Shown here: one piece after another, positions 23,450 through 63,100 of the stretch
Layout of the letters: every line of letters starts with the position of its first letter
Numbering within the stretch: position 1 is the stretch's first letter
From: Kiritimatiellia bacterium
GTDB taxonomy: Bacteria; Verrucomicrobiota; Kiritimatiellia; PWTM01
Direction: 5' to 3'
DNA: 64,000 nucleotides
Assembly (NCBI GenBank): GCA_026417735.1
Contig: JAOACR010000009.1
Span: 353,298-417,297, forward strand
The notes under the pieces: generated by a model
Told to the model about the DNA's origin: nothing
The model's database searches: none
Seen by the model: only the letters and a program-made list of their open reading frames with translations
Made by a program: the position numbers and the translations under genes

Positions 23450-23518
23450 ATCGACACCCTCCGCGCTACCTCCGTGCCGTCACCTCAGGCCGATCTCTCA
23501 TCGGCGTTCTCGTGCAAT

Positions 23519-26811: not shown

Positions 26812-26930
26812 CGCACACCTCCGTGCGGGCATCCTTCATCGCAGCGGGCCGAAGGCTCGTCAAGCCTCTCGAACCCGTCCCGCCCGCCCTGCGGGTTGCG
26901 AGCAGCCACCTAAACGCGCATCATCGCAAC

Positions 26931-38299: not shown

Positions 38300-38447
38300 G
38301 ATTGGTGCTCCGATGCGATGGCCCGTCCGCCGGCTGCAACTTATCACACCACAAAGCGTCGCCGCAACGAAATGGCGCCGTAGCCGCCGGCGAGTTCCAG
38401 CGTGCCTCCCCTCACGCTCCGCCGGCCGGCTCACGGCGACCACTCGC

Positions 38448-38476
38448 TTGCCGGCTGGTCAGCCGCGGGGTATGAT
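38448..38476 (+). promoter_or_regulatory. putative sigma-70-type promoter for tRNA-Cys (TTGCCG-N17-TATGAT)
   Basis: TTGCCG at 38448-38453 and TATGAT at 38471-38476, spacer 17 nt, about 38 nt upstream of the tRNA 5-prime end. Pattern match only. Confidence 0.3.
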
Positions 38477-38514
38477 GAAACTGTCTTTGGGGCCTGCGGG
38501 CCCGCCGCGACGGT

Positions 38515-38589
38515 GGCGCGGTAGCCAAGTGGTAAGGCGGAGGTCTGCAAAACCTCTATGCATCGGTTCGATTCCGATCCGCGCCTCCA
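38515..38589 (+). tRNA. tRNA-Cys (anticodon GCA)
   Basis: Manually folded cloverleaf: acceptor stem GGCGCGG/CCGCGCC, anticodon arm GAGGT-CTGCAAA-ACCTC with GCA at positions 34-36, T-arm ATCGG-TTCGATT-CCGAT, discriminator T, encoded CCA. Confidence 0.9.
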
Positions 38590-38691
38590 TTTCTCCCGCT
38601 GAAGCACGAAGGAGCCGCGCGGTTTGACGTTGTGGCGGCAGCCCGATAGCGTGCGGCGCGGTACCGACCTTCGGCATCCGGTTGACACCGC

Positions 38692-40128
38692 ATGGCGTCC
38701 GATCGGGAATTGCGTCCGCTGGCCGTCGCCACCGCAACGGCGGCGCTGGTGATCGCCGCCGGTCTGTGGGGGATCGCGGACTGGCTCCGCCGCGAACCGC
38801 CGTTCGAGCTCGCCGAGCGCCTACCGGAACCCGAAACGCCGCCGGCCACCGCGCCGACGGTGGATCTGCGTGGCAGCTTTTCCGCGGGGCCCGGAACCCC
38901 CTCCGTGGTGACCTCTATGTGGCCCCGGTTCCGGGGACCGTTGGCCGATGGCATCTCGCGCGAGCCAGTTCCATTGGCGGCTCGGTGGCCCTCCAACGGA
39001 CCGCCCGTGCTCTGGCAGGTGGCCGTCGGCGACGGCCATGCAGGTCCGGCGGTGCGGCACGGCCGCGTTTACCTGCTCGACTACGACGAAGAACGCCGCG
39101 GCGACGTGCTGCGCTGCCTCTCGCTGGATGACGGGCGCGAGATCTGGCGACGGTTCTATGCGGTCGACATCCGCCGCAACCACGGCATCTCGCGCACGGT
39201 GCCGGCGGTCTCCGAGCGGGTGGTGGTTTCAATCGGCCCTCGCTGCCACGTGCTGTGCGTCGACGCCTTTAGCGGGGAGTTTCTGTGGGGAATGGACCTG
39301 GTGCGCGAGCAGGGTGCGAAGGAACCGCTCTGGTATACCGCCCAGTGCCCGCTGCTCGACGGAGAGGTTGCGGTGCTGGCGCCCGCCGGCCGCGTGCTGA
39401 TGCTGGGGGTCGAGGTCACCTCCGGGCGGGTGGTGTGGGAGACGCCCAACGAGGACGGATGGTCAATGTCCCATGGGTCGGTGATCCCCATGGAGTTTAA
39501 CGGCCGACGCATGTATGTGTATCCGGCGCTCGGCGGGCTCGTTGGCGTCGCCGCCGACGGGCCGCAGGTCGGCCGCATCCTCTGGAAAACCTCCGAGTGG
39601 CGCACCAGCGTGCAGGCGCCCTCCGCGCTGCCGCTGCCTGGCGGCCGAGTGCTGATCACTGCCGGTTACGGTGCCGGCAGCGCACTGTTCCAGCTGCGGC
39701 CCGACGGCGACCGCTTTCGCGCCGAGCTGGTCTGGCGAGCGGACAAAACCACGTTCGGATCGGAACAGCAGACGCCGCTGTTCCATCGCGACCATCTCTT
39801 CGCGGTGATGCCCAACGACGGCGGCGCGCTGCGGCGGCAACTGGTCTGCTATGATCTCGGCGGCCGGCTCGTGTGGTCGAGCGGTCCGCAGCGACGGTTC
39901 GGACTCGGACCACTGCTGATCGCCGCGGCGGACGACCGGTTGCTGGTGATGGATGACGAGGGTACGTTGACGATGGTGCGCGCGACGGCGGATGGCTACC
40001 ACGAGCTGGCCCGCGCCACCGTGCTGCCGAACGCCCGGGATTCCTGGGGTCCGATGGCGCTGGTGGATGGCCGTCTGCTGGCGCGGGAATCGACGCGGTT
40101 GGTGTGCCTGGACTTGCGGCGCCGATGA
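38692..40128 (+). CDS. membrane-anchored PQQ-like (BamB-type) beta-propeller repeat protein
   Basis: 478 aa. N-terminal anchor LRPLAVATATAALVIAAGLWGIADWL, then repeated beta-propeller blades (VLWQVAVGDGHAGPAVRHGRVYLLDYD, RVVWETPNEDGWSMSHGSV). First gene of a coupled operon; paralogous to 43233..44957. Confidence 0.7.
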   Translation: MASDRELRPLAVATATAALVIAAGLWGIADWLRREPPFELAERLPEPETPPATAPTVDLRGSFSAGPGTPSVVTSMWPRFRGPLADGISREPVPLAARWPSNGPPVLWQVAVGDGHAGPAVRHGRVYLLDYDEERRGDVLRCLSLDDGREIWRRFYAVDIRRNHGISRTVPAVSERVVVSIGPRCHVLCVDAFSGEFLWGMDLVREQGAKEPLWYTAQCPLLDGEVAVLAPAGRVLMLGVEVTSGRVVWETPNEDGWSMSHGSVIPMEFNGRRMYVYPALGGLVGVAADGPQVGRILWKTSEWRTSVQAPSALPLPGGRVLITAGYGAGSALFQLRPDGDRFRAELVWRADKTTFGSEQQTPLFHRDHLFAVMPNDGGALRRQLVCYDLGGRLVWSSGPQRRFGLGPLLIAAADDRLLVMDDEGTLTMVRATADGYHELARATVLPNARDSWGPMALVDGRLLARESTRLVCLDLRRR

Positions 40129-41078
40129 ACACCCTGCCCTCGATCGCGTTGTATGCGGCGCTCGCCGCGATCACGGCGGTCACCACGGTGGCACGCGAGG
40201 ACCCTGGTCCCGCCTTCACGCTGAACCTGGATCCGCTCAAAACGGTGCCTCCGCAGTGGCGCCGCTGGTACGAGCAATCACCTCTGCGCACCAATCTGTC
40301 CCACCTGACGGCCATCGCAATCGCAACGGACGACCGATTCGCGATCGTGGCCGGTCGAACGCTGATCCGCGGCACTCTCGGCGAACCACCGGAGCGCGAC
40401 ACCCGCACCGAACTGCCCGACGCCGGCCGCGCCGCTACCTTCGGACCGGACGGTCAGCTGTGGATCGCCCGCGACCGTGGATGGATCGCGTTTCCCCCCG
40501 GCGGCGACCCCGAAGAAGGCCCCCCCCTTTCCATCTCCAGCCGGATCACCTCGATCGCAGTGACCACGGGCAACGTCTGGCTTGCCGACGCTGGCGAACG
40601 GATCGTGTGGGTGTTCGACCGGACCGGCACGCTGCGCGCGCAGGTCCGCGGCGCAGACGCCCACGGCTTCGTGATCCCCAGCCCGCACTTCGACGTCGCA
40701 CCGGCCGGACCCGACTCGGCCTGGATCGTCAATCCCGGTGAGCTCCGCGTAGAGCTATGGACCGCCGACGGCCGCCGCCTTCGCAGTTGGGGACGCCCGG
40801 GTATGGACCTCGAGGGCTTTTGTGGCTGCTGCAACCCAACCGACATTGTCCTCCTGCCCGATGGCTCGGTCGCCACCGCGGAAAAGGGCATCGTGCGCGT
40901 GAAAGTCTACCGTGCCGACGGTTCGCTGGAGAGCGTCGCCGCGGCACCGGACCAGTTTGCGCCGGACACGGTCGGCCTAGACCTGGCATCGGATGCGGCC
41001 GGCCGGCTCTACGTCGCCGATCCTGCCCGGCGGGCGGTGCGGGTGTTCGCGCGCCGCGCAAAAACGGGGGCGCCATGA
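40125..41078 (+). CDS. NHL-repeat-like beta-propeller protein with CGCC motif, signal peptide
   Basis: Start ATG 40125 overlaps the upstream stop as ATGA. MNTLPSIALYAALAAITAVTTVA signal. NHL-like repeats (VWLADAGERIVWVFDRTG, RLYVADPARRAVRVF). Unusual EGFCGCCNPTD motif. Confidence 0.6.
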   Translation: MNTLPSIALYAALAAITAVTTVAREDPGPAFTLNLDPLKTVPPQWRRWYEQSPLRTNLSHLTAIAIATDDRFAIVAGRTLIRGTLGEPPERDTRTELPDAGRAATFGPDGQLWIARDRGWIAFPPGGDPEEGPPLSISSRITSIAVTTGNVWLADAGERIVWVFDRTGTLRAQVRGADAHGFVIPSPHFDVAPAGPDSAWIVNPGELRVELWTADGRRLRSWGRPGMDLEGFCGCCNPTDIVLLPDGSVATAEKGIVRVKVYRADGSLESVAAAPDQFAPDTVGLDLASDAAGRLYVADPARRAVRVFARRAKTGAP

Positions 41079-41302
41079 GACCGGAGCCCTCCACATCGGC
41101 CAGATCGCGGCGCGAGTGGCTTCGCAACGTCGCCCGCCTCGGCGCCGGGGCGGCGATTGTGGCCATAGTTGGCCGCGCCGCGCGCTCCTTCACGCCGGCG
41201 ACCGCGCCGGACGCGGCCAGCGGCTGCGCCCACTGCCCCTGGGCGGCCAACTGTCGAATCAGTCCACAACGATGTGCGCAGCGAGCAGCACCCCTTCGAT
41301 GA
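41075..41302 (+). CDS. small twin-arginine-signal protein with Cys motif (75 aa), hypothetical
   Basis: ATG 41075 overlaps the upstream stop as ATGA; its TGA at 41300-41302 overlaps the next ATG (41299) as ATGA. Product MRPEPSTSARSRREWLRNVARLGAGAAIVAIVG...GCAHCPWAANC has a Tat-like SRREWL plus hydrophobic stretch. Confidence 0.4.
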   Translation: MRPEPSTSARSRREWLRNVARLGAGAAIVAIVGRAARSFTPATAPDAASGCAHCPWAANCRISPQRCAQRAAPLR

Positions 41303-41919
41303 ACTCCGACTCTCCATCGTCGCCGACCTCTGACCGCCGGCAGTTCTTGCTGCGCGGCGCGGCCGCCGCCGCCGGATTTGCGGTCGCCACACTCGCCGGC
41401 GCAGCCGCGCGCGGTGCCGCCTCCCGCGACCGCATGGTATGGCAGATCGACCCTCACAAGTGCATCCAGTGCGGTCGCTGCATGACGAACTGTGTGCTGA
41501 CACCGTCCGCGGTGAAATGCGTGCACACCTACGCGATGTGCGGGTACTGCCGGTTCTGTTTCGGCTATTTCGACCCTGGCGCGGCGGAGCTCAACAGCGC
41601 CGCGGAAAATCAGATGTGCCCGACCGGCGCGATCCGTCGCCGTTTCATTGAGCCGCCATACTACGAGTACTCGATCATCGAACAGCTGTGTACCGGCTGC
41701 GGCAAGTGCGTGAAGGGCTGTAACACTTTCGGCAACGGCTCCCTGCAGCTTCAGATCCTCCATGACCGCTGCGCGCAGTGCAATGAGTGTGCGATCGCAC
41801 GCCGCTGTCCCGCACAGGCGATCGAGCGCGTTCCGCTGAGGGCGTGGAACCGGATGAAGGCCGAATTCGGGCCGGCCGGCGCCGCGTGGACAAACCCGGA
41901 GCCCCCGGCGCATGCGTGA
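41299..41919 (+). CDS. Tat-exported 4Fe-4S polyferredoxin (NapG-like periplasmic ferredoxin)
   Basis: Start ATG 41299 (ATG 41272 alternative) within track ORF 40993..41919. Tat motif SDRRQFLLRGAAAAAGFAVATLAGAAA. Cysteine clusters CIQCGRCMTNC, CGYCRFC, CTGCGKCVKGC and CAQCNECAIARRCP. Confidence 0.7.
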   Translation: MNSDSPSSPTSDRRQFLLRGAAAAAGFAVATLAGAAARGAASRDRMVWQIDPHKCIQCGRCMTNCVLTPSAVKCVHTYAMCGYCRFCFGYFDPGAAELNSAAENQMCPTGAIRRRFIEPPYYEYSIIEQLCTGCGKCVKGCNTFGNGSLQLQILHDRCAQCNECAIARRCPAQAIERVPLRAWNRMKAEFGPAGAAWTNPEPPAHA

Positions 41920-43222
41920 GTATCGTCTCCGCACGACCCGGCGGATCAGTATCGCGGTGCTGCTTGTCACCGCGATCGCAGTCGCCGCGGAGCAACGGTT
42001 CCCAAAACCAGATTTCAAGTCCGGCTACACTCAGCCCGTCTATCGCCCCCCTCTGCCCGCACGCTCCGCCGCACGTGAGTGGGCGGACGTCGGGTTGCTG
42101 GCCACCGCGTTGGTCGCCGCCGCATGGCTAGCGCTGCGCGCGCGCTCGCGCCGGGGCCTGTGGGCGCTCTCCATCGGCGCGCTCGTATGGTTCGGTCTGG
42201 TCCGCCAGGGCTGCATCTGCCCGGTGGGCTCAATCCAGAACGTCGCGCTTGCGCTCGCTGACCGTACCCATGCAATCCCGCTGACCACCGCGCTGATCTT
42301 CGCACTGCCGCTGATGGCGGCACTGTGCTGGGGACGGGTCTTTTGCGCGGCGGTGTGTCCGCTCGGCGCACTCCAGGACCTGGTGGTCCTGCGGCCGGTG
42401 CGGCTGCCGCGACCGCTGAACCGCGCGCTCGCGATGCTGGGCCCCACCGTGCTCGCGTTCGGCCTGGCGCTCACCTTCGCCGGCGCAGGCTTCTGGATCT
42501 GCCGCTACGACCCCTTCGTTCCGCTCTACCGGCGCAGCGGTTCGGCCGGCATGATCGCCACCGGCATCGCGTTGCTGGTGCTCGGCACCGTCGTGGCTCG
42601 GCCCTACTGCCGATATTTCTGCCCCTACGGCGTGCTGCTGGGATGGTGCTCGCGCCTTGCCCGCCGCCACCTCACCATCACCCCGGACGAATGCATCGAG
42701 TGCCGGCTCTGCGAGACCTCCTGTCCATTCGATGCGATCCGCGCCCCCGAGCCGCCCCATCCGGACCGCGCCGCCGCGCGCCGTGCGCTCGTTCGCGCGC
42801 TGAGCCTCGCGCCGCTTCTGATCGCAGCAGCCGCCGGCGCGGGGCGCACAGTGCTGCTGGCGCTCGCCCCACACGTTCACCCTGCCGTCACGCTTGAGGC
42901 GCAGCTGCTCGCCGAAGAGGCCGCCGGCACGCCCGACCTCACTTGGGAAACCCGCGCGTTCCGCCTCTCCGGCGCCCCTCGCGAGACGGCGACCACCGCG
43001 GCCGCCACCGCCCGCGGAAGGCTCGCCTCCGCGGGCCTTTGGGCCGGCGGTTTCGTCGGCCTGGTCGGCGTCACGCGCATCGTCGCCTCGCTGCGGCGCA
43101 GCGACCGTCGCGACTGGGTGCCGGACCGCGGCGAATGCCTCAGCTGCGGCCGGTGCTTCGCGCATTGCCCCCGTGAGTACGTCCGGCTCGGCCGGCTCGA
43201 CGGTCCGATCGGAAACCCGTAG
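41912..43222 (+). CDS. NapH/MauN-type membrane-bound polyferredoxin (CX3CP motifs plus 4Fe-4S clusters)
   Basis: 436 aa polytopic protein. CICPVGSIQ, RVFCAAVCPLGALQD and RPYCRYFCPYGVLLGW are NapH-family CX3CP blocks. CIECRLCETSCP and CLSCGRCFAHCP are ferredoxin motifs. Start overlaps the upstream gene by 8 nt. Confidence 0.75.
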   Translation: MREYRLRTTRRISIAVLLVTAIAVAAEQRFPKPDFKSGYTQPVYRPPLPARSAAREWADVGLLATALVAAAWLALRARSRRGLWALSIGALVWFGLVRQGCICPVGSIQNVALALADRTHAIPLTTALIFALPLMAALCWGRVFCAAVCPLGALQDLVVLRPVRLPRPLNRALAMLGPTVLAFGLALTFAGAGFWICRYDPFVPLYRRSGSAGMIATGIALLVLGTVVARPYCRYFCPYGVLLGWCSRLARRHLTITPDECIECRLCETSCPFDAIRAPEPPHPDRAAARRALVRALSLAPLLIAAAAGAGRTVLLALAPHVHPAVTLEAQLLAEEAAGTPDLTWETRAFRLSGAPRETATTAAATARGRLASAGLWAGGFVGLVGVTRIVASLRRSDRRDWVPDRGECLSCGRCFAHCPREYVRLGRLDGPIGNP

Positions 43223-43232
43223 AGAAAACCGC

Positions 43233-44957
43233 ATGAGCGCCGACCGCACTCCCGCCAGCCGCACGCTCGCCGCCGCGCTGCGCGGTCTGCTCTTCGGTGC
43301 CGGTTTCGTCTGCGCGGTCGCCGGAGCAGTCGCGCTGCTCAACTGCGTGCAACTGCGTCGGGCGGACCCGTTGAACTCGCCGCTGCGGCTTGAAGCGATC
43401 CGCGCCGCACAGTCGCAACCGGCCAACGCTGATCTCGTCGCCGAAGCGCGACGTCTCGACCTGCTGGCACGCCGAGCATTTTTCTCCGCGCAAACGCTCG
43501 CGGAGCAGGCCGGCCGCCTGCTGTGGATTGGTGCGGCGCTGATCCTCGGTGCGATCGCGGGCGCGCGCTGGCTCGAGCCGCGCGTCGCGCCGCCCCCCGC
43601 GCCGTTGCCAACCCCCGATGTCGGCGAACGCGAAGCGCGGGCGGCCCGCCGCGCCGTGGCCGCCTACCTCGCGTTGCTGATCGCCGGCGGTGCCGCGGCC
43701 GCCCGTACGCTCCGCGCGCGGCCGGCAGGGGCCCCCGGCGACGTCGCCCCCCCACCCACGACGAACCAGCCGGCACTCCCCGAGGACTCCGCACTGGCCG
43801 AGGCGTGGCCCTCCTTTCGCGGCCATTTCGGCCGCGGCGGCCGCGACAGGCCCGCCCCCACCCGTTGGGATGTACCCACCGGCCGCAACGTCCGATGGAG
43901 CATCGAGGTGCCACGGCCCGGATTCAGTTCCCCAATCTTCTGGAACAGCCGCGTCTTTCTCACCGGCGCGGACACCTCCACCGCCGAACTCTACGCGTTC
44001 TGCGCGGACACCGGCCGACTGCTCTGGCGGCATGAGGCGCGCGATGTGCCCGGATCCCCCCGCACCCCGCCCAAGACCAGCGAGGAAGTGGGTCTGGCCG
44101 CACCAACACCCACCACCGACGGCCTGCGCGTGTACGCAATGTTTGGCACCGGCGATCTCATCGCCTGCGACCTTGAGGGCCGCCGCCTGTGGGCCCGCCA
44201 TCTCGGCTCGCCGAAAAATCCCTACGGCCACTCCTCCTCTCCGATCGCAGTGCGCGGTCGCCTGATCGTCCAGTTCGACGACGAAACCGGCGGCCGACTG
44301 CTGGCGCTGGACGGGGCCACCGGCCGCACGATTTGGGAAACCCGCCGGGACGTTCGGCCCGGCTGGTCCACGCCGGTCGCCGCAGAACACAACGGCCGGC
44401 TTCGAATCGGGGTGCTCGCACAGCCGTTCTTCGCGGTCTACGACTGGGCGGACGGGCGCGAGCTGTGGCGCGTCCCCGAGCTTGAGGCGGAGATCGGCAC
44501 CTCTCCCGCGTTTGCGGACGGTCGTTGGTATGCGGGCAATGACAACACGCGGTTCGTCGCGGCCGACGACGTCGACGGCCGCGTACTCTGGGAGACCGAC
44601 GAGGATCTCCCGGACGTCGCCTCTCCGCTGGTCTGGCGCGGGCTGGTCGTTTTGGCGGCCAGCTCGGGGATCGTCACCGCGCGCGATGCGGCAACCGGCG
44701 AAAAGTTGTGGAGCCAAGAATGGGAGGAAGGGTTCTACGCCTCGCCAGTGGCGGCGGGTGAGGCGATCTACTTGCTCGATCGCGCGGGTCGCGCACGGGT
44801 GGTGCGTGCTGCGCGCCAGTTCGAGCTGATCGCCGAGAACCCGGTGGGCGAGGAGTGCGGCGCAACGCCCGCACTTGCGGGCGACCGTCTCTACCTGCGT
44901 ACTCGACACCGGCTGATCGCCATCGAAGAGGCAACGACCGCCCCCACCGCGCCATGA
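43233..44957 (+). CDS. membrane-anchored PQQ-like beta-propeller repeat protein (second copy)
   Basis: Start ATG 43233 within track ORF 42894..44957. N-terminal helices LLFGAGFVCAVAGAVALL and LLWIGAALILGAIAGA, then propeller repeats (RLLWRHEARD, RRLWARHLGS, RTIWETRRD, RELWRVPELE, RVLWETDED, EKLWSQEWEE). Confidence 0.7.
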   Translation: MSADRTPASRTLAAALRGLLFGAGFVCAVAGAVALLNCVQLRRADPLNSPLRLEAIRAAQSQPANADLVAEARRLDLLARRAFFSAQTLAEQAGRLLWIGAALILGAIAGARWLEPRVAPPPAPLPTPDVGEREARAARRAVAAYLALLIAGGAAAARTLRARPAGAPGDVAPPPTTNQPALPEDSALAEAWPSFRGHFGRGGRDRPAPTRWDVPTGRNVRWSIEVPRPGFSSPIFWNSRVFLTGADTSTAELYAFCADTGRLLWRHEARDVPGSPRTPPKTSEEVGLAAPTPTTDGLRVYAMFGTGDLIACDLEGRRLWARHLGSPKNPYGHSSSPIAVRGRLIVQFDDETGGRLLALDGATGRTIWETRRDVRPGWSTPVAAEHNGRLRIGVLAQPFFAVYDWADGRELWRVPELEAEIGTSPAFADGRWYAGNDNTRFVAADDVDGRVLWETDEDLPDVASPLVWRGLVVLAASSGIVTARDAATGEKLWSQEWEEGFYASPVAAGEAIYLLDRAGRARVVRAARQFELIAENPVGEECGATPALAGDRLYLRTRHRLIAIEEATTAPTAP

Positions 44958-47371
44958 CCCGGGCCGCCCAGCGTCCACCCGCCGCTCCACCCGACCTGAG
45001 CGAAGTCGACCGCATCGTCAACGCGATCGGTCGTTCCCCCGAGCAGGCGCTGCCGCTGCTGCAGGCGGTGCAGGCGCGCTTCGGTTATCTGCCCGAGGCA
45101 GTGCTGCGCCGAATCTGTGAAATCACCGAAATCCGTCCCGCGGACCTGTGGAGCGTCGCGACCTTCTATCCGCAGCTGCGACATCGGCCCGCAGGACGAC
45201 ATTCGATCTGCGTATGCGTCGGGACCGCATGCCACGTGAAGGGCGCGGAACGGGTCTACGAGGCGATTGCGCGCGAACTCCGACTGCCAGCGGGGGAGGA
45301 CACGGACGCCGCCGGTGAGTTCACTGTTCGCAAGGTCGCCTGTCTGGGCTGTTGCACGCTGGCGCCAGTGGTGATGCTCGACCGCGTCACCTACGGCCAT
45401 CGCACCGCGGACAACATCCGCGAGATGCTGGATGATTTTACCGCCCGACCGGCCGACCGCGAGGGGGACCCCCTCGCCGAGGCCACGCCGATCGACCCGC
45501 CCGAAGCCGCCGGAGAGATCCGGATTGGTCTGGGCTCCTGCTGCATCGCCGGCGGCAGTGCGGCGGTCGAATCAGCGCTGCGCACGGCGGTGCGATCGCT
45601 CGGCGTACCGATCCGCATCCGGCCGGTCGGATGCGTCGGGATGTGCCACCGTACGCCCCTCCTCGAAGTCGTGCGCCCCGGCGCCGAACCCGTGCGCTAC
45701 GAGCGGGTCCGCGCCGCGGATGTCGAAGCGATCGTGCGCCGCCACTTCAGCCCCGGGCGATGGCGTCGCTGGCGGGCGCAGACGGCGGACGCATTGGACG
45801 AGTGGCTCGGACGGGGGCGGGGGGCGGTGGGGCCAGCCCCCGTGCTCGACCCCCGTGACGGGCCCGTCCAAGCGTTCCTATGCCGCCAGCTTCATATCGC
45901 CACCGAGGCGTGCGGTGCGCTCCATCCGCTGGATCTGGATCAGTACCGCGCCGGCGGCGGCCTGCGCGCGCTGGAGGACTGCCTCGCCCGCCGTTCTCCG
46001 GATGAAGTGATCGCCGCGATCGAGGCCGCCGGCCTCCGCGGCCGCGGCGGCGCCGGATTTCCCACCGGCCGAAAGTGGCGCGCGGTGCGCGACGCACCGG
46101 CCGGTGACCGCTACATCATCTGTAACGGCGACGAGGGCGACCCCGGCGCGTTCATGGACCGCATGCTCTTCGAGTCCTATCCCTATCGTGTGCTCGAAGG
46201 GATGATCATCGCCGCCTGGGCGGTTGGCGCGCGGGAAGGTATCCTCTACATTCGTGAGGAGTATCCGCTCGCGGTGCGACGCGTGCAGGCCGCAATCGAC
46301 CGGCTGCGCGACGCTGGCGTGCTCGGGCCGGACATTCTGCGTTCCGGGGTGTCCCTCGAATTGCGGATTGTGCAGGGCGGCGGCGCGTTCGTCTGTGGGG
46401 AGGAGACCGCGCTGATCGAGTCCATTCAGGGTCGCCGAGGCTCGCCCGTGCTGCGCCCTCCGTTCCCTGCACAACGCGGCTTCCGTGGCGCGCCGACGCT
46501 CGTCAACAACTGCGAGACGCTCGCGATGGTGCCTTGGATTCTGCGGCACGGACCCGCCGCGTTCGCGGCGATCGGCACCGCCCACAGCAAGGGCACCAAG
46601 GTGTTCGCGCTGGCCGGCAAGGTGGCGCGGGGCGGCCTGATCGAGGTGCCGATGGGCATGACGCTGCGCGAGATCATCGAGGAGATCGGCGGCGGCGCCG
46701 CAAACGGGCGCCCGTGGAAAGCAGTGCAGGTCGGCGGGCCGTCCGGTGGTTGCGTGCCCGCGACGCTCGGCGACACGCCCGTTGACTACGAGGCGCTCAC
46801 CGAAGTGGGCGCCATGATGGGCAGCGGAGGGCTCGTCGTGCTCGACGACACCGACTGCATGGTGGACGTCGCGCGCTATTTTCTCTCCTTCACCTGCCGC
46901 GAGTCGTGCGGGAAGTGCACCCCCTGCCGCATCGGCACCCGCCGCATGCTCGACATCCTCGACCGCCTCTGCGAAGGGCGCGCGGCGCCGGACGACCTCG
47001 CGCGACTGGAGGAGCTCGCCGAGACCACCCGCCGCCAGAGCCTCTGCGGCCTGGGTCGAACCGCGCCCAACCCGGTGCTGACGACGCTGCGCTACTTCCG
47101 CGACGAGTACGAGGCGCACCTGCGCGGCATTTGCCCTGCCGGCCGCTGCGTGCACCTCATCGCGTACGAGGTCGGCGCCGAGTGCATCGGCTGCACCCGC
47201 TGCGCACAGGTCTGCCCCGTCGTGGCGATCCGGCCGGACCCGATGCGCCGCCATGTGATTGACGGTGGTTTGTGTGTGCGGTGCGATCTGTGCCGGACTG
47301 CCTGTCCGACAGGTGCGATCCGGATTGTGCCCCGGCAAACGGCGTCGGCCCCCGGAGCGGCGGAGCGATGA
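44954..47371 (+). CDS. NAD(P)H-binding iron-sulfur flavoprotein, NuoE-like plus NuoF-like fusion (HndC/HoxF/FdsB-type)
   Basis: Start ATG 44954 overlaps the upstream stop as ATGA. Thioredoxin-like 2Fe-2S block CVCVGTACHVKG...VACLGCCTLAP, second ferredoxin-like block SCCIAGGS...VGCVGMCH, NuoF core GLRGRGGAGFPTGRKW and GGGAFVCGEETALIESIQG, ESCGKCTPCRIG, then C-terminal 2x 4Fe-4S (CIGCTRCAQVCP, CVRCDLCRTACP). Confidence 0.8.
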   Translation: MTRAAQRPPAAPPDLSEVDRIVNAIGRSPEQALPLLQAVQARFGYLPEAVLRRICEITEIRPADLWSVATFYPQLRHRPAGRHSICVCVGTACHVKGAERVYEAIARELRLPAGEDTDAAGEFTVRKVACLGCCTLAPVVMLDRVTYGHRTADNIREMLDDFTARPADREGDPLAEATPIDPPEAAGEIRIGLGSCCIAGGSAAVESALRTAVRSLGVPIRIRPVGCVGMCHRTPLLEVVRPGAEPVRYERVRAADVEAIVRRHFSPGRWRRWRAQTADALDEWLGRGRGAVGPAPVLDPRDGPVQAFLCRQLHIATEACGALHPLDLDQYRAGGGLRALEDCLARRSPDEVIAAIEAAGLRGRGGAGFPTGRKWRAVRDAPAGDRYIICNGDEGDPGAFMDRMLFESYPYRVLEGMIIAAWAVGAREGILYIREEYPLAVRRVQAAIDRLRDAGVLGPDILRSGVSLELRIVQGGGAFVCGEETALIESIQGRRGSPVLRPPFPAQRGFRGAPTLVNNCETLAMVPWILRHGPAAFAAIGTAHSKGTKVFALAGKVARGGLIEVPMGMTLREIIEEIGGGAANGRPWKAVQVGGPSGGCVPATLGDTPVDYEALTEVGAMMGSGGLVVLDDTDCMVDVARYFLSFTCRESCGKCTPCRIGTRRMLDILDRLCEGRAAPDDLARLEELAETTRRQSLCGLGRTAPNPVLTTLRYFRDEYEAHLRGICPAGRCVHLIAYEVGAECIGCTRCAQVCPVVAIRPDPMRRHVIDGGLCVRCDLCRTACPTGAIRIVPRQTASAPGAAER

Positions 47372-48954
47372 GCGTGCGTGTGATCGTGGATGGCCGGGCG
47401 GTCGAGCTGCCCGATGGCGCCACGCTTCTGGAGGCGACCCGCGCACTGGGCATCCGTGTGCCAACCCTTTGCCACCGCGACGGTCTTCCTCACTACACCT
47501 CCTGTATGGTCTGCGCAGTGCGCGAACTGTCGGGCGGCCGCCTGCTCCCCGCCTGCTCGTACCCGGCCACCGACGGCATGGAGGTGGACGCCTCGTCCGA
47601 CGAAGTCCGTGCGGCCCGGCGCCGTGTGCTCGAGCTGCTGCTGAGTGAACACGTCGGCGACTGCGAAGCGCCCTGCCGGCGCGCCTGCCCGGCGCACCTG
47701 CGTATCCCCGAGCTGCTGCGCGACGCCGCCCGCGGTGCATGGGCCCAAGCCGCCCGTCTCGCCGCGGAGGATCTTGTGCTGCCCGCCGCGCTCGGCCGCA
47801 TCTGCCCCGCCCCCTGCGAACGAAGCTGCCGACGCGCCCAGCACGATGCTGCGTTGCCGATCCGCGAGCTGCACCGGCGGCTCGGCGAATCGCCGGAACT
47901 GGCCGGCGCCCGGCAGCGCCCCGCCGCCACATCGCCGCGCACAGCCCGCGTGACGGTTGTCGGTGCCGGACCCGCCGGCCTCGCTGCTGCTGCGTTTCTC
48001 CGTCGCGCCGGCGTCGAGGTGACCTTGCGCGATCGCGCCCTCCAGCCGGGAGGCGCGCTGCGCGATCCGGCGGTGTCCGATCGGCTGCCGGCCCACGTTC
48101 TCGACGCGGAAATCCGCGAGGTGCTCGCCGCCGGCATTCGGTTCGAACCGGGCGCCGACGTGCTCGAACCGGGCGCGCTCGATCGCTGGATCGAAAACGC
48201 CGATGCGGTCGTGCTCGCTTGCGGTGCGCTGGACGCGCGCTCCATCGCCGCGCTCGGCCTCGAGAGTGGACCCCGCGGCGTCCGCGCGGATGCGAACACC
48301 CGGCAAACCTCGCGACGCGGTGTGTTCGCAGCGGGCGCGATGGTTCAACCGATGCGCTTGGCGGTACGCGCGGTGGCGGATGGTCGTCTTGCCGCAGAGG
48401 CGGTCCTCGTCTGGCTCGAGCTGCGCCCGGCCCCCCCCTGGCCCGTCCGATTCGACAGCCGCATCGGTCCTCTCCACCCCAGCGAAGTGGCACAATGGCT
48501 GCCCGATGCCTCGCCTGCCTCGCCCGGCTGGCCGGACACGGAGAGCGGTACCGCGCTGGACGATCGCGCCGCCGCGGATGCGCGCCGCTGCCTCGGCTGC
48601 GACTGCCGCAAAGCCCGCAGCTGCCGCCTGCGCCGCCTTGCCGACGAGTATCGCGCATCCCCCGCCCGCTTCGCGGCCACCGCGCGCCCCCCTGTTATCC
48701 TGCGCCGAGACCATCCGCGCCTGGTCTACGAACCGGGCAAGTGCATCCACTGCGGCATCTGCGTGCGTCTCGCCGCGCGATCTCGCGGCACGATGACGTT
48801 CCAGCGCCGCGGTTACGAACAACAGGTCGCGCCCGCGTTCAACAATGGCCTGGACGCGGGGCTGGGTGCCGCGGCGGACGAAGCAGTTCGCGCCTGTCCC
48901 ACCGCCGCGCTCGCTTTTCGCACTTGGGAACCCATCTCCGGAATATCTCGATGA
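47368..48954 (+). CDS. 2Fe-2S ferredoxin (NuoG N-terminal-like) fused to GltD-like FAD/NAD(P)-binding oxidoreductase with C-terminal Fe-S motif
   Basis: Start ATG 47368 overlaps the upstream stop as ATGA. MSVRVIVDGRAVELPDGATLLEATRALGIRVPTLC is the 2Fe-2S N-terminus. VTVVGAGPAGLAAAAFLRRAGVEVTLRD is a dinucleotide-binding fold. CLGCDCRKARSC and CIHCGICVRLA are C-terminal cysteine motifs. Confidence 0.7.
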   Translation: MSVRVIVDGRAVELPDGATLLEATRALGIRVPTLCHRDGLPHYTSCMVCAVRELSGGRLLPACSYPATDGMEVDASSDEVRAARRRVLELLLSEHVGDCEAPCRRACPAHLRIPELLRDAARGAWAQAARLAAEDLVLPAALGRICPAPCERSCRRAQHDAALPIRELHRRLGESPELAGARQRPAATSPRTARVTVVGAGPAGLAAAAFLRRAGVEVTLRDRALQPGGALRDPAVSDRLPAHVLDAEIREVLAAGIRFEPGADVLEPGALDRWIENADAVVLACGALDARSIAALGLESGPRGVRADANTRQTSRRGVFAAGAMVQPMRLAVRAVADGRLAAEAVLVWLELRPAPPWPVRFDSRIGPLHPSEVAQWLPDASPASPGWPDTESGTALDDRAAADARRCLGCDCRKARSCRLRRLADEYRASPARFAATARPPVILRRDHPRLVYEPGKCIHCGICVRLAARSRGTMTFQRRGYEQQVAPAFNNGLDAGLGAAADEAVRACPTAALAFRTWEPISGISR

Positions 48955-48991: not shown

Positions 48992-51979
48992 ATGAACCCA
49001 ACCGTTGTCGCCGCGCTCCTATGGAGCGTTGCTGCCGTTGCTTCCTCCGCCCCGCCGCTCGAAGCGCGCTTCCGCTCACCTCCGCGCGAACATCGGCCAT
49101 GGGCCTACTGGTGGTGGCTCAAGGGCAACGTGGACGAAGAGACGATCACGCGCGATCTCGAGGCGATGAAATGGGCCGGCTTTGGCGGTCTGCTGCAGTT
49201 TGACGTGCGCGGCTACCATGAGGCCGTCGTGCCACCGCCCCCCGAACGCACACCCTATATGAGCGCACGCTGGCGGGAACTGATGAGACATGCGCTGCGC
49301 GAGGCGGACCGGCTCGGCCTTGAAGTCAGCATCAATCTCAGCATGTGCGCCGGCGCGCTGATGGGGCCCACGACCGCCGGCGCGGACGCCCCAAAGAAGC
49401 TGATCTGGACCGGCACCGAAGTCGTCGGCCCCGCCCGGCTCGACTGCCGGCTTCCGGCCATCCCGGGCGAAGGCGCGGTGGAAATCGCGCTGCTCGCGGT
49501 GCGCCTCCGCGAGAGCTCCCCACCGGAACCACCGGCCGTGCACGCACATCCAGCGCCCGCTTGGCCGCCCCATTGGCGCTCCGATCTCCCCGCCACCAAC
49601 GCGCCCACCCCGGTGGCCGGCGAGCCGCTCGACCTGACCGACAAGCACGACGCCGAAGGACGCCTCACCTGGGAAATCCCTCCCGGCCGATGGGCGGTGA
49701 TCCGTTTCGCCTCCGTTCTGGCCGTCGGCGACCCCGTTCACCACGGTCAACTCGTCACTCCGTTCGACGTGGACGTGCTCGACGCCGACGCGGTGCGGCG
49801 GCACTTCGAGCGCCTCGGCGGTGAGCTGTTGAAAGACGCCGGGCCGCTGGCGGGTCGCACCCTCACTCATTTCTACAGCGTGAGCTGGGAAGGTGCCGCG
49901 CCGACCTGGACCGCCCGTTTCGAAGAACAGTTTCGAAATGCTCGCGGTTACGCTCTTCGTCCGTGGCTACCGGTGCTCGCCGGGTTCGAGGTCGGCGGAT
50001 CCGAGGCCGCGCGCCGCTTTGTGAACGATTATCACGCAACGCTCGCCGAACTGATGATGAACAACTTCTACGGCGAACTGCAGCATCGCTGCCACGCCGT
50101 GGGTCTCAAATGGCATGCCGAATCCGGCGGCCCGTGGAACCGGCGTCTCCCCACCTTTGCGCGCGCCGATCAGCTCGCCTTTCTCGGGCGCACCGACATG
50201 CCGCAGGGCGAATTCTGGTTCACCGGCGGGCGCGCCATCGGTCGACCGCCCGAGTTCAACCGCCCCGCCGCAATGGCCGCGCACATCTACGGCCGACCGC
50301 TGGCCGCCGCAGAAGCCTTCACCCACATGGTGCAGCACTGGTCAGAGCATCCCGCCGCACTGAAACCTCTCGCCGACATCGCCTTCTGCGACGGCATCAA
50401 CCACCTGATCTGGCACACCTTTACCGCCTCGCCGCCGGAGTTCGGTCTGCCGGGCGTCGAATATTTCGCCGGCAGCCATCTGAACCCCAACGTCACCTGG
50501 TGGCCGTTCGCCCGCCCGTTCATCGAGTACCTCGCACGCTGTCAGACAATGCTGCGCCACGGCCGTCCGGTCGCCGACCTCGCCGTGTTCATCGGCGAAC
50601 ACCCCTACCAACACTGGGGCCGCGGCTCACAGTGGAGCGAACGTGCGACACTCCATCCGCCCGCCGGCCACACCTATGACCTCGTCAACATCGAGGTGCT
50701 CTGCTCGCGCCTCGACGTGGTCGACGGCGGACTCCGGTTGCCGGAGGGGCTCGGCTATCGTGCACTGGTCGTGGACCTCGAGCAGGAGACCCTCCGACCC
50801 GAGCCGCTCCGGCGGATTCTCGAACTCACCGAACGCGGCGCAACCGTCATCCTCGGGCAACGCCGCCCCACCGCCTCCAGCAGCCTCGCCGGCTGGCCCG
50901 ACGCTGATACCGAGGTGCGCCGTCTAGCCGATGTGCTGTGGGGTGCCGTGAACGCAGCGTCGCCGGAGGAGCCCGTGCGGCTCGGTGCAGGTCGTGTGTT
51001 CCGCCGCAGTTCCGTCGCCGACGCGTTTGCCCGCCTCGGCGTTACCCCCAATGTGGAGGGCCCCTTCGAGTTCGCACACCGCACCGATGCGGAGACGGAC
51101 GTGTACTTCCTCACCGGTCACCGCCCCGGCGACGCGATTTTTCGGGTGACCGGTCGCCGCCCCGAACTCTGGGACCCCGTCACCGGCACAATTCGCCCGC
51201 CGCACGGCTGGTCCCCCACGGCCGACGGCAGAACACGCGTTCATCTCCGCCTGCCCACCAACGGCAGCACATTTGTGGTCTTCCGCGAACCCGCCCGAGG
51301 CTTGCCCCCCTACGAGCCACCCCCGCCCGACGTCGAGATCCTCAGCCTCACCAACGGCCATGTCGAAGTCCGGGTGTGGACCGCTCAGCCCGTTGAGTGG
51401 ACGCTCCGCCACGGCCATACCGTGCACCTCAACCCCAACACGCCCCCCCCACTGGAGCTGACCGGCCCATGGACCGTTGTGTTCGAATCGGGCCGGGGCG
51501 CGCCGCCGCAGCTGGTGATGGAGCGGCTGACCGACTGGACCGAACATCCCGATCCGAATGTGCGGTTTTTCTCCGGCCGTGCGACGTACCGTCACACCAT
51601 CGAGCTCGATGCAGATCGGGCCTCCTCTCCGGCCCGCCTCGAACTCCATCGCGTGGGTGTGATCGCCCGTGTCACCGTGAACGGCCGGAACGCGGGCATC
51701 CTCTGGACCTTCCCCTGGGAGGTTGAGCTCACGGGACTTCTACGCGCGGGCCCCAACGACATCGAAATCGAGGTCGCCAACGTGTGGGTCAACCGGCTGA
51801 TCGGTGACGCCTCGCTGCCGCCGGAAAAACGGACTACCCGGACCAACGTCGCTCTGCAGCCCGGTGAGCGCACCGTCCGGATCTATCAGGGATTTGGCGC
51901 GAACGATCCGCTCGTGCCCTCCGGACTCCAGGGGCCAGTTCGCTTGCGGTTCGGCCGGGATGTCTCCGTCCGGCTGTGA
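48992..51979 (+). CDS. large secreted glycoside hydrolase-like protein (paralog of 8346..12323; possibly GH106-like)
   Basis: Start ATG 48992 (MNPTVVAALLWSVAAVASSAPP signal; GGAG 8 nt upstream) within track ORF 48845..51979. FRSPPREHRPWAYWWWLKGNVDEETITRDLEAMKWAGFGG. C-terminal LELHRVGVIARVTVNGRNAGILWTFPWEVELTGLLRAGPNDIEIEVANVWVNRLIGD. Confidence 0.75.
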   Translation: MNPTVVAALLWSVAAVASSAPPLEARFRSPPREHRPWAYWWWLKGNVDEETITRDLEAMKWAGFGGLLQFDVRGYHEAVVPPPPERTPYMSARWRELMRHALREADRLGLEVSINLSMCAGALMGPTTAGADAPKKLIWTGTEVVGPARLDCRLPAIPGEGAVEIALLAVRLRESSPPEPPAVHAHPAPAWPPHWRSDLPATNAPTPVAGEPLDLTDKHDAEGRLTWEIPPGRWAVIRFASVLAVGDPVHHGQLVTPFDVDVLDADAVRRHFERLGGELLKDAGPLAGRTLTHFYSVSWEGAAPTWTARFEEQFRNARGYALRPWLPVLAGFEVGGSEAARRFVNDYHATLAELMMNNFYGELQHRCHAVGLKWHAESGGPWNRRLPTFARADQLAFLGRTDMPQGEFWFTGGRAIGRPPEFNRPAAMAAHIYGRPLAAAEAFTHMVQHWSEHPAALKPLADIAFCDGINHLIWHTFTASPPEFGLPGVEYFAGSHLNPNVTWWPFARPFIEYLARCQTMLRHGRPVADLAVFIGEHPYQHWGRGSQWSERATLHPPAGHTYDLVNIEVLCSRLDVVDGGLRLPEGLGYRALVVDLEQETLRPEPLRRILELTERGATVILGQRRPTASSSLAGWPDADTEVRRLADVLWGAVNAASPEEPVRLGAGRVFRRSSVADAFARLGVTPNVEGPFEFAHRTDAETDVYFLTGHRPGDAIFRVTGRRPELWDPVTGTIRPPHGWSPTADGRTRVHLRLPTNGSTFVVFREPARGLPPYEPPPPDVEILSLTNGHVEVRVWTAQPVEWTLRHGHTVHLNPNTPPPLELTGPWTVVFESGRGAPPQLVMERLTDWTEHPDPNVRFFSGRATYRHTIELDADRASSPARLELHRVGVIARVTVNGRNAGILWTFPWEVELTGLLRAGPNDIEIEVANVWVNRLIGDASLPPEKRTTRTNVALQPGERTVRIYQGFGANDPLVPSGLQGPVRLRFGRDVSVRL

Positions 51980-60181: not shown

Positions 60182-63100
60182 TCAGCGAAGCCGACGGCGC
60201 AGCAGAATCCCCGCGGCGATCATGCCCACCAGCCCCAGCGTAGACGGCTCCGGAATGACGGTGAGCGTGATGTCGCTCGCGTTGTAGTCAATCTGGAACT
60301 GCGTCGAACCGACATTGAACGTGCTGCCCGAGCTCGGCAGCCCGCTGAAGGTGCCGGACAGCGTCGAGAACCCGCTCACAATCTGGAACGTGTCGCCCAG
60401 GCTCGGCGTGAAGCCCAGGATCACCGACAGCGTCGGATTCGACAGCGTCAGCGTTGTGCCGGTCCCCATCAGCAACTGGTCGTACAGCGTCCCCGGCGTG
60501 GTCCCGTTCAGCTCCACCTCGAAGAACGCGCCGCTCTGCAGCGTCACGTTCGCGTTCGCGGTGAAGATGCCGGCACTCGAGCCGGGCGCCAGCGTGCCGC
60601 CCGAGAGCACGTTGATCGCGCCGGCGACTGACCCGTTGCCCTCGAGGCGCCCGCCCACCACCGTGATCAAACCTCCGCCGGTGTGCGCACCTTGGATCCG
60701 CAACGCACCGTTCGAGACAATCGTCGGACCCGTGTACGGGTTGTTGAACGTCAACACCGTCGTACCCGAACCGATCTGCGCCAGCGTGCCCGCCCCTCGA
60801 ATCTCGTTGGTCACAACATGGACGTCGCTGCGGTCAAACCACAACTGCGTGCGGTTCGTGACCACGCCGGAACCAAGATTGCCGACCGTCCCGCCCTCTC
60901 CGATGCGCAGCACGCCGTTGCTGACGAATGTCCAACCGCCGGCCTGGTTCTGGGCCGCAATGGTCCAGATGCCCGGCCCCTCTTTCAGAATCGGCAGATC
61001 GGTCATGATGCCATTCGAGATCACCCCGCGCAGGATGCCCATTCCCGCGCCGTCAAGCTGCAGAATGCGGCCGGTCGCGCTCGGGAAAATCACGCCGTGC
61101 AAGATCAAGCCAGCGCCCGCATCCGCTGCGAAGCGGGAGCTGCCCGCACCCGCCGTCATGTTGATGGTGCTGACCCACGCGTTCGTGCCCGCCACACTGC
61201 GGATCACGCCGAGCGTGTTGCTGAAGCCCGTCCCGCTGGTCTGGATCACCTTCCCCGTGACACCAATGTTACCCGACATCCACAGCGCCCGGCTGCCCAA
61301 GCCGCCACTCTGGTAGTTCACGAACACCGTGCCGGTGCCGTGCGCACCGAGCGCGTAACTCTTCGTAATCCACAGCGCCCCGGTTCGCACCTCCCAGTTC
61401 CCGAAGAAGTCGGGGCTGTCCTGCGTGAGCTGCAGCAGGCCGTCCGAACCCTGCTGGCGGATCGTGCCGGTGCCGACAAACACGTTCGAGGAGATCAGAA
61501 AGCCCGGCATCGCAAACTCCACGATCGCGCCGAGGTTCGTAATCGGTTGCGTCGTCGGGACTCGCACACCTTCCACAATGTTGCTGTGGCCCAACCGAAG
61601 CGTGCCGCCGGAGACGAGAATCCCACCCGTGAACGCGTTCGTGTTGATCAGGTTGAGGAAGCCGGTGCCCGCCTTGATCAGCCCGCCGCTGCCATAGATT
61701 GGCTGGTCCACCGTCTGCGCGTTCGAATGGTTGAACGCGAGCAGGCCCATGTTCGTCACCGGCCCCGAGACCATCGGGCTAGACGGCGCCCCGCCCGTGC
61801 CGATTTGCAGCAGGCCGTTGCTGATCATCACAAACGTGGCCGTCAGCCCCGGGTTCGGAAGCACCAGCGCGCCCGGCCCCGTCTTCACCAGCGGCACCGG
61901 GCTCGTCATCGTCAGCGTGCTGCTGACCACGCTCGTAAATCCGACGCCGGCAATGTGGTACACCGTGGGTCCCTGAATCAGGTGCGGGCCGCTCATCGTC
62001 AGCGTCTGACCGTTCGTTCCGGACAGGGTCAGATAGACACCGGCGTTCGTGAACGGGCCACTCAGCGTCACGTCCGGTGGCCCCTTCAGTTGGATGACGG
62101 AGCCGGCCTGCACATTGAAGGGGCTTGCGATCGCATACGAACTGGTCGAGACGATGAACATCGAACCATCGCCCGGATCCACCATCATCGAATAGTTGAA
62201 CTCGTTCGACTCCCCTCGGCCCTGCGGATCGTAGCCGAACCCAAACGGCCAATTCGCCGACGGGCCGACACCGCCGGAACCCTGGCCGAATGCGACTTCG
62301 AAGGAGTGGTATCCGGGGGTCAGCTCCACCGTCGCCCAGGTGGCAACGTTGTGAGCGATACCATTGGTGATTCGGATGATCCCGTCGATGACGAGCCGCA
62401 CGCTGTCGTCGAAGTTCTCCGCAAATGTCCAGGTGACGTTCGTCGGGCCGGGAATGTAGAGAAAGCCCGTGTACATGTAGGTCGAGGTGTCTGGGAAACC
62501 TCCGCTGCCGGTGATCGTCGTCTGGCCGTAGCTCGGTCCCAGCCGCACCGCCTGCTTCGGGTTCGCGGCGCTCGACAACAACGACACACTGTGGACGTTT
62601 GTCCGCCCCTCAAAGAGCCCAGCGCCGGTCAAAATCACATCCCCACCCGCCAGTGTCACCACGCCGGCATTGGTTGGCGCCGCGCCAAGGAACACCTTCG
62701 TGCCGGGAGCCGCCGTCACACTGTGATAGCGCCCAACCAGCGCAATTTCGGCACCGGCCGCCACCGAAATCAGCGCAGTGGGCGCAGAGTCCAGCGCCAG
62801 ACGACCGCCCAACACTTCCACCGAATAGAGCTGATTCGTCCCTACGGCGGGAAGCGAAGCAACGCCGGTGCCGATTTTCTGCAGCGAGAGGAGCCCACTC
62901 GAGCCGATGAGATTCCCGGCCCAGTTCAGGCTGTTCGCATTCCCACCCCCAACGACCAGCAGCGACGGCGCAACGCCCGCGTTGAGGACCCGCGCGGCAC
63001 GCGAGCCAGCGATCGAAGAAACCGCTTGCGTGAAGCCGTTCAGGTCCACCGTTGCCCACGTCTGGAGCGGATTCGTCCCACCCAGCGCCCAGGGCGAGCC

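Follow-up and report, generated by a model that had tools for sequence, protein, structure and literature searches.

A conserved operon that may link cytoplasmic NADH oxidation to periplasmic beta-propellers in Kiritimatiellia and other bacterial phyla

Membrane iron-sulfur (Fe-S) proteins of the NosR/NirI/RdhC (PceC) type are thought to pass electrons to periplasmic reductases without heme. The known Bfu enzymes all couple NAD(H), ferredoxin and a third substrate (PMC9304861). Their BfuB subunit is distinguished from NuoF-type proteins by N-terminal [2Fe-2S] and C-terminal two-cluster domains (Schut et al., PMC9304861), and the Bfu survey counts 17 BfuB clades to which no function is assigned. 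In WorABCSL the BfuABC core is coupled to a string of Fe-S clusters that leads to a distant catalytic site (PMC12318220). Relatives of both types of protein are encoded together in the operon described here, which is found at positions 38692-48954 (+ strand) of a 64,000-nucleotide stretch of DNA (the window) from a Kiritimatiellia bacterium (GenBank assembly GCA_026417735.1, contig JAOACR010000009.1, positions 353,298 to 417,297 of the forward strand). Exact protein matches (P0001 and P0121) assign the window to a metagenome-assembled genome of Kiritimatiellae. The operon consists of eight tightly packed open reading frames (ORFs), g1 to g8. Their building blocks are known, namely a Bfu flavoprotein (g7, g8), NapGH-type polyferredoxins (g4, g5) and propellers (g1, g2, g6). 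What has not been described is their combination, the shortened NfnA-like protein g8, the distinctive subfamily of g5 and the end module made of propellers and a four-Cys protein (g3). We give somewhat better than an even chance to the reading that the operon codes for one membrane-spanning redox complex, free of heme and molybdenum, that passes the electrons of NADH to a thiol/Fe-S reductase site in the periplasm.

The gene order is conserved far beyond the window. A scan of one genome per GTDB species identified a g2 relative in at least 582 genomes, of which 80 loci were fetched and annotated by phmmer comparison of the window proteins with all their ORFs. The order (g1)n-g2-g4-g5-g6-g7-g8-(g6) is present almost everywhere in these species-level loci, as seen from the adjacent pairs g1>g2 (71/73), g2>g4 (69/78), g4>g5 (64/65), g5>g6 (53/57), g6>g7 (45/51) and g7>g8 (41/44). 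It is kept across more than 12 phyla, which goes against one of the refuting outcomes named in a preliminary description of this DNA, homologs that never co-occur in other genomes. The hosts, bacteria of sediment and gut type, are Bacteroidales, Kiritimatiellia, Lentisphaeria, Verrucomicrobiota, Planctomycetota, Aminicenantes, Calditrichota, KSB1, Latescibacterota, Armatimonadota, Spirochaetales, Sumerlaeota, Anaerolineales and Neomarinimicrobiota. Among the Bacteroidales are two cultured strains, Marinifilum flexuosum DSM 21950 and M. fragile JCM 15579, and a metagenome-assembled genome of Labilibaculum. Contigs from Latescibacterota, KSB1, Capsulimonadaceae and Aminicenantes carry identical neighbours in identical order. 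No further gene family is conserved in the flanks of the cluster in these loci, a GT4 glycosyltransferase gene following the last propeller gene in 11 of them. The tight gene coupling, the shared order and the absence of any other conserved neighbour argue for a single complex.

Rearrangements are rare. The g1-g2 pair is divergent from g4-g8 in two loci (L009 and L021) and g5 precedes g4 in one locus of Anaerolineales (L067), which indicates that the propeller pair and the electron-transfer genes can be separate transcription units. Two KSB1 loci carry an IS200-like Y1_Tnp transposase gene in the g6-g7 interval (L002, 14918-15352; L003, 15415-15849) of an otherwise intact cluster. In the draft genome of Marinifilum fragile JCM 15579 (L083) g7 is found as three successive ORFs, for which frameshifts, a pseudogene or sequencing errors are possible explanations.

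All eight + strand ORFs and all gene junctions listed in the preliminary description are present in the window. Start and stop codons overlap as ATGA at 40125, 41075, 41299, 44954 and 47368, genes g4 and g5 overlap by 8 nucleotides (ATGCGTGA, 41912-41919), and a 10-nucleotide gap separates g5 from g6, whose start codon is the ATG at 43233 and not the upstream TTG of a longer ORF. The absence of a catalytic molybdo- or heme subunit, also pointed out there, agrees with the lack of any molybdopterin domain in the operon genes (Pfam and NCBIfam, used for all domain searches below) and of any CxxCH heme motif in the operon genes of the window; among the 618 cluster ORFs of the related loci, CxxCH is confined to five copies of g5. 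None of g1-g8 reaches the curated NCBIfam equivalog cut-offs for NapH, NosR, NuoE/F, GltD, BamB or quinoproteins, no curated model covers g1, g2, g3 or g5, and no description of the gene set was found in the full-text literature, subscription-only papers being outside the scope of the search. The locus thus matches no known system, as had been proposed.

The closest described relative of g7 and g8 is the NfnABC/Stn bifurcating transhydrogenase of the Bfu family (PDB 9BOV/9BP5, 9N5U, 8OH5; PMC11829005, PMC10482914, PMC7483475). The cytoplasmic protein g7 (44954-47371, +) is a BfuC/NuoE-like [2Fe-2S] protein fused to a BfuB/NuoF-like subunit. It can be aligned over its full length to NfnB/StnB (E ~1e-200), with the NuoE-like partner present as a fusion. 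Its matches are NfnB of Caldicellulosiruptor (Csac; 9bov_B, 4e-203), an archaeal NfnB (9n5u_B, 1e-198, over residues 189-793), Sporomusa StnB (8oh5_B, 4e-196) and HydB (9e-184), and the alignment to NfnB/StnB/HydB takes in the cluster domains at both termini. The Pfam domains 2Fe-2S_thioredx (residues 19-162), Complex1_51K (356-527), NADH_4Fe-4S (638-722) and Fer4 (742-790) and an NCBIfam 2Fe-2S ferredoxin match (213-268) delimit its modules. The BfuB part carries an N-terminal [2Fe-2S], a flavin mononucleotide (FMN)/NADH site whose glycine-rich loops are conserved among orthologs, an N3-type [4Fe-4S] and a C-terminal 2x[4Fe-4S] domain. This is, together with the NuoE-like BfuC, the domain set that characterizes the Bfu family (PMC9304861). 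The scores with complex I NuoE/NuoF models stay below their cut-offs (TIGR01959, 435.6 versus 558.65; NF005722, 131.8 versus 141) and no other nuo gene is adjacent to the operon.

The cytoplasmic protein g8 (47368-48954, +) is BfuA/NfnA-like, with Fer2_4, Fer4_20 and Pyr_redox_2 domains. It shares with NfnA/StnC the N-terminal [2Fe-2S], the GltD-type 2x[4Fe-4S], a flavin adenine dinucleotide (FAD) fold with GxGxxG and GVFAAG motifs and, further on, two HydA-like Fe-S motifs. Its alignment to 9bov_A, 9n5u_A and 8oh5_C covers NfnA/StnC residues 4-297, then ~424-452, then 553-671. Unlike those proteins, g8 has no counterpart to a subdomain of ~126 residues (chain 298-423 of 9bov_A), which is where NfnA binds NADPH (PMC11829005), nor to the Fdh/NuoG-like C-terminal half, as it ends at chain residue ~671 of 1178. 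The spacing from GxGxxG to GVFAAG is 119 residues in g8 orthologs, most of which have a single GxGxxG, and both losses are family-wide. The GltD model TIGR01318 gives a score of 113 versus a cut-off of 483, the NADPH domain being absent. Since g8 lacks an NAD(P)H-binding Rossmann subdomain, the NuoF-type FMN site of g7 is the only evident nicotinamide input, for NADH. The module is Bfu-type but not a transhydrogenase, and an identity with Stn/Nfn transhydrogenases is therefore ruled out. The earlier domain calls agree with the database matches, except that the term NAD(P)H flavoprotein is true of g7 only. The A4/A5-like clusters retained in g8 may be free to serve as electron exit. Further differences to NfnABC/Stn are that BfuC and BfuB form one protein and that the operon is shared with membrane and periplasmic partners.

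The membrane partner g5 (41912-43222, +) is a NapH/NosR-family Fe-S protein (Fer4_5, 45 bits) with a signal peptide and seven predicted transmembrane segments (TMs). Its relatives form a uniform family of 420-460 residues with 45-55% identity across phyla, which JGI pipelines annotate automatically as NosR/NirI family. NapH models are its best named-family matches, at scores far below their cut-offs: 39.8 bits versus 213 for TIGR02163 (napH; 3.7e-10, alignable over residues 124-273 only) and 34.8 versus 234 for PRK09477 (9e-9). The NosR model NF046105 scores 28.8 versus 1000. Although g5, like NosR, NirI and RdhC (PceC), is a NapH-family membrane Fe-S protein, it differs from NosR/NirI in its partner proteins and in the absence of a periplasmic FMN-binding domain (no FMN_bind match in Pfam). 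Motifs C145x3C149P and C233x3C237P and two CxxCxxCxxxCP stretches (261-272 and 409-420) are conserved in 67 orthologs. The two CX3CP motifs and a probably cytoplasmic 2x[4Fe-4S] domain in a polytopic protein are as in NapH-type proteins. Unlike NapH, g5 has the signal peptide, three more TMs, extra conserved Cys (C101, C103, C197) and a ferredoxin domain whose half-sites are split by two TMs. Its topology was deduced from the positive-inside rule with family-averaged hydropathy and charge: both CX3CP motifs and both ferredoxin motifs would be cytoplasmic, C101-x-C103 and C197 would be on the periplasmic half, and a conserved R-F-P-x-P-x-F segment following the signal peptide is predicted to be periplasmic. 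No solved structure matches g5 beyond the ferredoxin motifs.

Like in NapGH, NosGH and MauMN, the polytopic Fer4_5 protein adjoins a four-cluster ferredoxin with a twin-arginine translocation (Tat) signal, a position from which a periplasmic partner could be fed. This ferredoxin, g4 (41299-41919, +), is a NapG-like polyferredoxin of the Fer4 family with the Tat motif RRQFL, whose R13-R14-x-F16 is kept in at least 90% of 69 orthologs, and with 17 conserved Cys, enough for four [4Fe-4S] clusters. The difference to the three known pairs lies in the co-encoded cytoplasmic NADH flavoprotein and in the missing partners: no gene for NapA, NapB, NapC, NosZ or methylamine dehydrogenase is found in the window operon or in the 80 related loci.

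The second Cys-rich protein, g3 (41075-41302, +), is a 75-residue signal-anchor mini-protein with the Tat motif SRREWL, a hydrophobic stretch and four Cys, and has no Pfam or NCBIfam match. The Cys spacing is C-x2-C-x5-C-x6-C in the window copy, for a family consensus of C-x4/5-C-x2-C-x5-C-x-L-P. ORFs of this type (RRxF/L, hydrophobic region and consensus Cys) are found between g2 and g4 in ~50 loci, a count biased by the RR motif that the scan demanded. The protein is a candidate for a single Fe-S site. A twin-Arg motif followed by a hydrophobic region is conserved in g3 as in g4, and both are predicted to be exported by Tat. The retention of Tat motifs on both exported Cys-rich proteins counts in favour of an electron conduit to the periplasm. 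An analogy to methylamine dehydrogenase/MauMN or to quinohemoprotein amine dehydrogenase (QHNDH), in which the small Tat Cys/Trp protein would carry a peptide quinone inside a propeller, was discarded, as conservation extends to the four Cys only and not to the Trp found in the window g3.

The propellers complete the gene set. The best conserved periplasmic component is g1 (38692-40128, +; 50-57% identity between phyla), an eight-bladed BamB-like/PQQ_2 beta-propeller anchored by one N-terminal TM. Its AlphaFold2 model (predicted local distance difference test score, pLDDT, 95) has the non-catalytic binding propellers YxaL, BamB and Rv3035 as nearest structural neighbours, with which, as with the tetrathionate hydrolase, another eight-bladed cofactor-less propeller, it shares only 13-18% identity. 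BamB model TIGR03300 yields 22 bits for g1 and 70 bits for g6 versus a cut-off of 285. Unlike BamB, g1 and g6 bear TM anchors instead of a lipobox, and g1 displays in addition family-specific invariant positions: W77-P-x-F-R-G82, W152-R-R, the loop K/R161-R-N-H164-G-x-S-R168-T, whose R-N-H-G-x-S-R is invariant and cationic, and H261. The preliminary description had called g1 PQQ-like. PQQ_2 matches are indeed found in g1 and g6, but the quinoprotein models are missed and the folds are closer to cofactor-less BamB-like proteins than to dehydrogenases dependent on pyrroloquinoline quinone (PQQ). All propellers of the operon have BamB-like or NHL folds and no cofactor, which sets them apart from PQQ enzymes. 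Propellers of the NosZ or hydrazine synthase type were dismissed, no cupredoxin or heme motifs being present. The g1 cysteines are unlikely ligands of an Fe-S center, since some of the fusion proteins mentioned below have other residues in place of C185 and C219; these Cys are more likely to form disulfides.

The membrane-anchored protein g2 (40125-41078, +) is a six-bladed NHL propeller (Pfam NHL; AlphaFold2 pLDDT 93) whose best Foldseek matches, the NHL domains of TRIM2/3, show likeness to generic NHL domains only. Its family comprises 629 clusters (50% identity, E<=1e-30) from many phyla, annotated merely as 'hypothetical' or 'NHL repeat' proteins. Overall identity across phyla is ~35%, and two segments are invariant in 104 sequences: F232-x-G-C235-C236-N-P, which reads FCGCCNP in the window, and T251-x-E-K-G-x-x-R258-x-K260. 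Four proteins of 761-772 residues (P0165, P0200, P0213, P0218) are g1-g2 fusions in which g2, devoid of its anchor, is joined to the g1 carboxyl terminus. This organization implies that both propellers act together and on the same side of the membrane. The third propeller, g6 (43233-44957, +), has three N-terminal TMs followed by a PQQ_2 propeller (121.6 bits). The TMs are kept in 56 orthologs and the second loop is basic, which places the propeller in the periplasm; no Cys is conserved in the ortholog alignment. Other loci have extra g1-like PQQ_2 paralogs, from zero to six upstream of g1 and often one after g8 (L001, L025, L041, L057, L071 and others). These are soluble proteins with cleavable signal peptides and without the R-N-H-G loop.

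The uncharacterised transmembrane conduit between NAD(P)H and the periplasm that had been suggested earlier is thus supported by domain content and synteny. Its topology, the coupling of g5 to g7/g8, the direction of electron flow, the kind of terminal site and the substrate are inferred, and would be as follows. The Bfu-type flavoprotein g7/g8 would oxidise NADH at the NuoF-type FMN of g7, possibly with ferredoxin joining the NADH input by flavin-based bi- or confurcation. The Fe-S chain of g7/g8 would hand the electrons to the ferredoxin motifs on the cytoplasmic side of g5. Cys-bound centers of g5 (the two CX3CP on the inner face, C101-x-C103 and C197 on the outer face) would carry them through the membrane to g4, from which they would enter a membrane-anchored periplasmic assembly of the g1-g2 propeller pair, g3 and g6. 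In the periplasmic proteins, residues that are both invariant and capable of redox chemistry are limited to the two vicinal Cys of g2 and the Cys quartet of g3. The terminal site would most likely be a vicinal-Cys/Fe-S center formed by the GCCNP of g2 and the g3 Cys, lined by the invariant Arg, Lys and His of g1 and g2. This setting suggests Fe-S-assisted thiol chemistry on an anionic substrate. Ferredoxin:thioredoxin reductase and HdrB provide analogues for such chemistry, to be taken as a lead and not as a test. Transfer of electrons outwards is favoured by the membrane potential, and could bring acceptors whose potential does not exceed that of NADH within its reach. The substrate might be an oxidant dissolved in the periplasm, probably an anion, that contains an S-S bond or is an oxyanion, for instance polysulfide, thiosulfate, tetrathionate or a disulfide, a guess to which we attach low probability. 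As all known Bfu enzymes have a third substrate, the periplasmic chain may be the third substrate here. A Bfu core feeding a polyferredoxin wire has a precedent in WorABCSL, which counts for the conduit; that enzyme is soluble, has a tungstopterin catalytic subunit and passes electrons from aldehyde to NAD+ and ferredoxin (PMC12318220), whereas the wire proposed for g1-g8 would cross the membrane and end on propellers.

Several observations weigh against this conduit. Gene g8 is absent from L018 and from L004/L042 (Verrucomicrobiota, Capsulimonadaceae) where g7 is kept, so that g8 is dispensable in at least two lineages and the essential link to the membrane is probably made by g7. No fusion of g5 with g7 or g8 is present among the top 120 g5 relatives. 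Fe-S binding by g3 and by the membrane Cys of g5 is a prediction from motifs, and in the window copy of g3 the first Cys has shifted from its place in the family motif. The structures of g1 and g2 were predicted separately, as monomers, and the subunit contacts are proposals. The substrate is a guess from charge pattern and fold resemblance. With non-catalytic proteins as neighbours of g1 and generic NHL domains as the matches of g2, the propellers may serve as scaffolds, in which case another acceptor, such as a protein, may be the true one.

Since NapH itself is considered a quinol dehydrogenase, g5 could draw on menaquinol instead of g7/g8, g5 and g4 acting like NapH and NapG to feed the propellers and g7/g8 being a separate enzyme of the same operon, either a Bfu enzyme in solution or an NADH:quinone entry point that replenishes the pool, and not wired directly to g5. 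This is rather unlikely, even if NapH models are the best named matches of g5, g4 resembles NapG, g8 is missing in some lineages, no fusion of g7 or g8 with g5 was encountered among the top 120 g5 relatives and g1-g2 are divergent from g4-g8 in two loci. The score of g5 is remote from the NapH cut-off, its three extra TMs and conserved Cys are outside the NapH profile, g7/g8 bring along neither a membrane anchor nor a subunit with a quinone site, and g7 comes after g6 in 45 of 51 loci from different phyla, which would be unusual if it were a soluble enzyme unconnected to the rest. Moreover, Bfu enzymes always have a module for a third substrate (PMC9304861) and no other is encoded here. The opposite direction of flow, in which the propellers would oxidise a low-potential donor and electrons move inwards to NAD+ and/or ferredoxin in a redox loop building proton-motive force, is quite improbable. 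Bfu enzymes are reversible (PMC9304861), and dehydrogenases and lactonases of the periplasm include PQQ_2 and SGL-like folds, but inward transfer opposes the membrane potential and requires a donor whose potential is well under -320 mV. The operon codes for no catalytic site of low potential, such as a hydrogenase or formate dehydrogenase, and its propellers rank nearer to cofactor-less BamB-like proteins than to PQQ dehydrogenases and miss the quinoprotein models.

It is a somewhat stronger, still minority, possibility that the conduit is real and that it serves proteins or cofactors and not a small molecule of the respiratory type. The complex would then maintain or mature the envelope by reducing disulfides, sulfoxides or metal for envelope or secreted proteins, with a DsbD-, MsrPQ- or CcoG-like function and with BamB-like propellers as client-binding scaffolds. 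CcoG, a member of the NapH family, is a cupric reductase, which counts for such a role. The protein-binding folds nearest to g1 point the same way, as do the accessory soluble propellers, whose variation from zero to six resembles adaptor diversification, the invariant vicinal Cys pair, suited to thiol-disulfide exchange, and the housekeeping, not respiratory, nature of the flanking genes. On the other hand, a large multi-cluster Bfu-type input and a four-cluster periplasmic ferredoxin are heavy machinery for repair, no component has a thioredoxin-fold, Msr or Dsb domain, and the loci hold no conserved client gene nearby. That the eight ORFs form no functional unit at all has a negligible probability. 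The GC content of the window is ~69%, and such DNA yields many spurious long ORFs; however, all eight have strong family matches or conserved orthologs, the GC content at third codon positions (GC3) exceeds 0.8 in those where it was measured, and the order kept in 80 loci across phyla, along with the fusion proteins, excludes chance adjacency.

The flanks of the operon consist of unrelated housekeeping and glycan genes, so that the unit is bounded by the divergent intergenic region between glmM and g1 (38444-38691) and by the g8 stop codon. Upstream, on the - strand, are glmM (ending at 38443), glmS, a rhomboid gene and tadA; downstream are genes for GH106, queA and EF-G. The intergenic region holds one sigma-70-like site (38448-38476) with 9 of 12 consensus positions, weak evidence as 0.5 matches are expected by chance, and the promoter and terminator scan gave no signal above background. 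The window has two GH106 alpha-L-rhamnosidase-like genes (8307-12323, + and 48992-51979, +), the second of which starts 37 nucleotides past g8 and is not kept beside the cluster in other loci, a GH26 gene with an F5/8 type C domain (6047-7897) and an arabinofuranosidase-like gene (24451-26835, -). These genes identify the host as a polysaccharide degrader. Elsewhere in the window, a 996-residue P-type ATPase (17339-20329, -; E1-E2_ATPase and HAD hydrolase) carries a C-terminal SPFH/Band 7 domain (residues 666-881) in an apparently unusual fusion. The 1049-residue ORF at 20330-23479 (-) shows a faint Reg_prop match and otherwise belongs to no family, and a protein of more than 1271 residues with PATR (autotransporter passenger) repeats (60182-64000, -) continues past the window end.

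The operon may represent a new class of energy-metabolism complex, a membrane-bound Bfu enzyme with a periplasmic 'third substrate', although we hold it to be clearly less than an even chance that its three new features occur jointly. These would be a membrane crossing free of heme and quinone on Cys-bound Fe-S centers of a NapH-family protein, a novel active site at the interface of two cofactor-less beta-propellers and a four-Cys Tat mini-protein, and an oxidation of NADH, perhaps ferredoxin-bifurcating, tied to an environmental acceptor in many uncultured sediment phyla. If the wiring proposed is correct, it would define a third membrane-bound Bfu type and give a function to one of the unassigned Bfu clades, it would offer a tractable case of heme-free transmembrane transfer by a NapH/NosR-type protein that bears on NosR, RdhC and NapH, and it would reveal new periplasmic reductase chemistry. 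The presence of the cluster in the cultured Marinifilum strains makes direct testing possible. The host groups dominate the degradation of organic matter in anoxic sediments, and little is known of where they dispose of electrons; the conduit would give such fermentative or facultatively anaerobic polysaccharide degraders a quinone-independent sink for the electrons of NADH.

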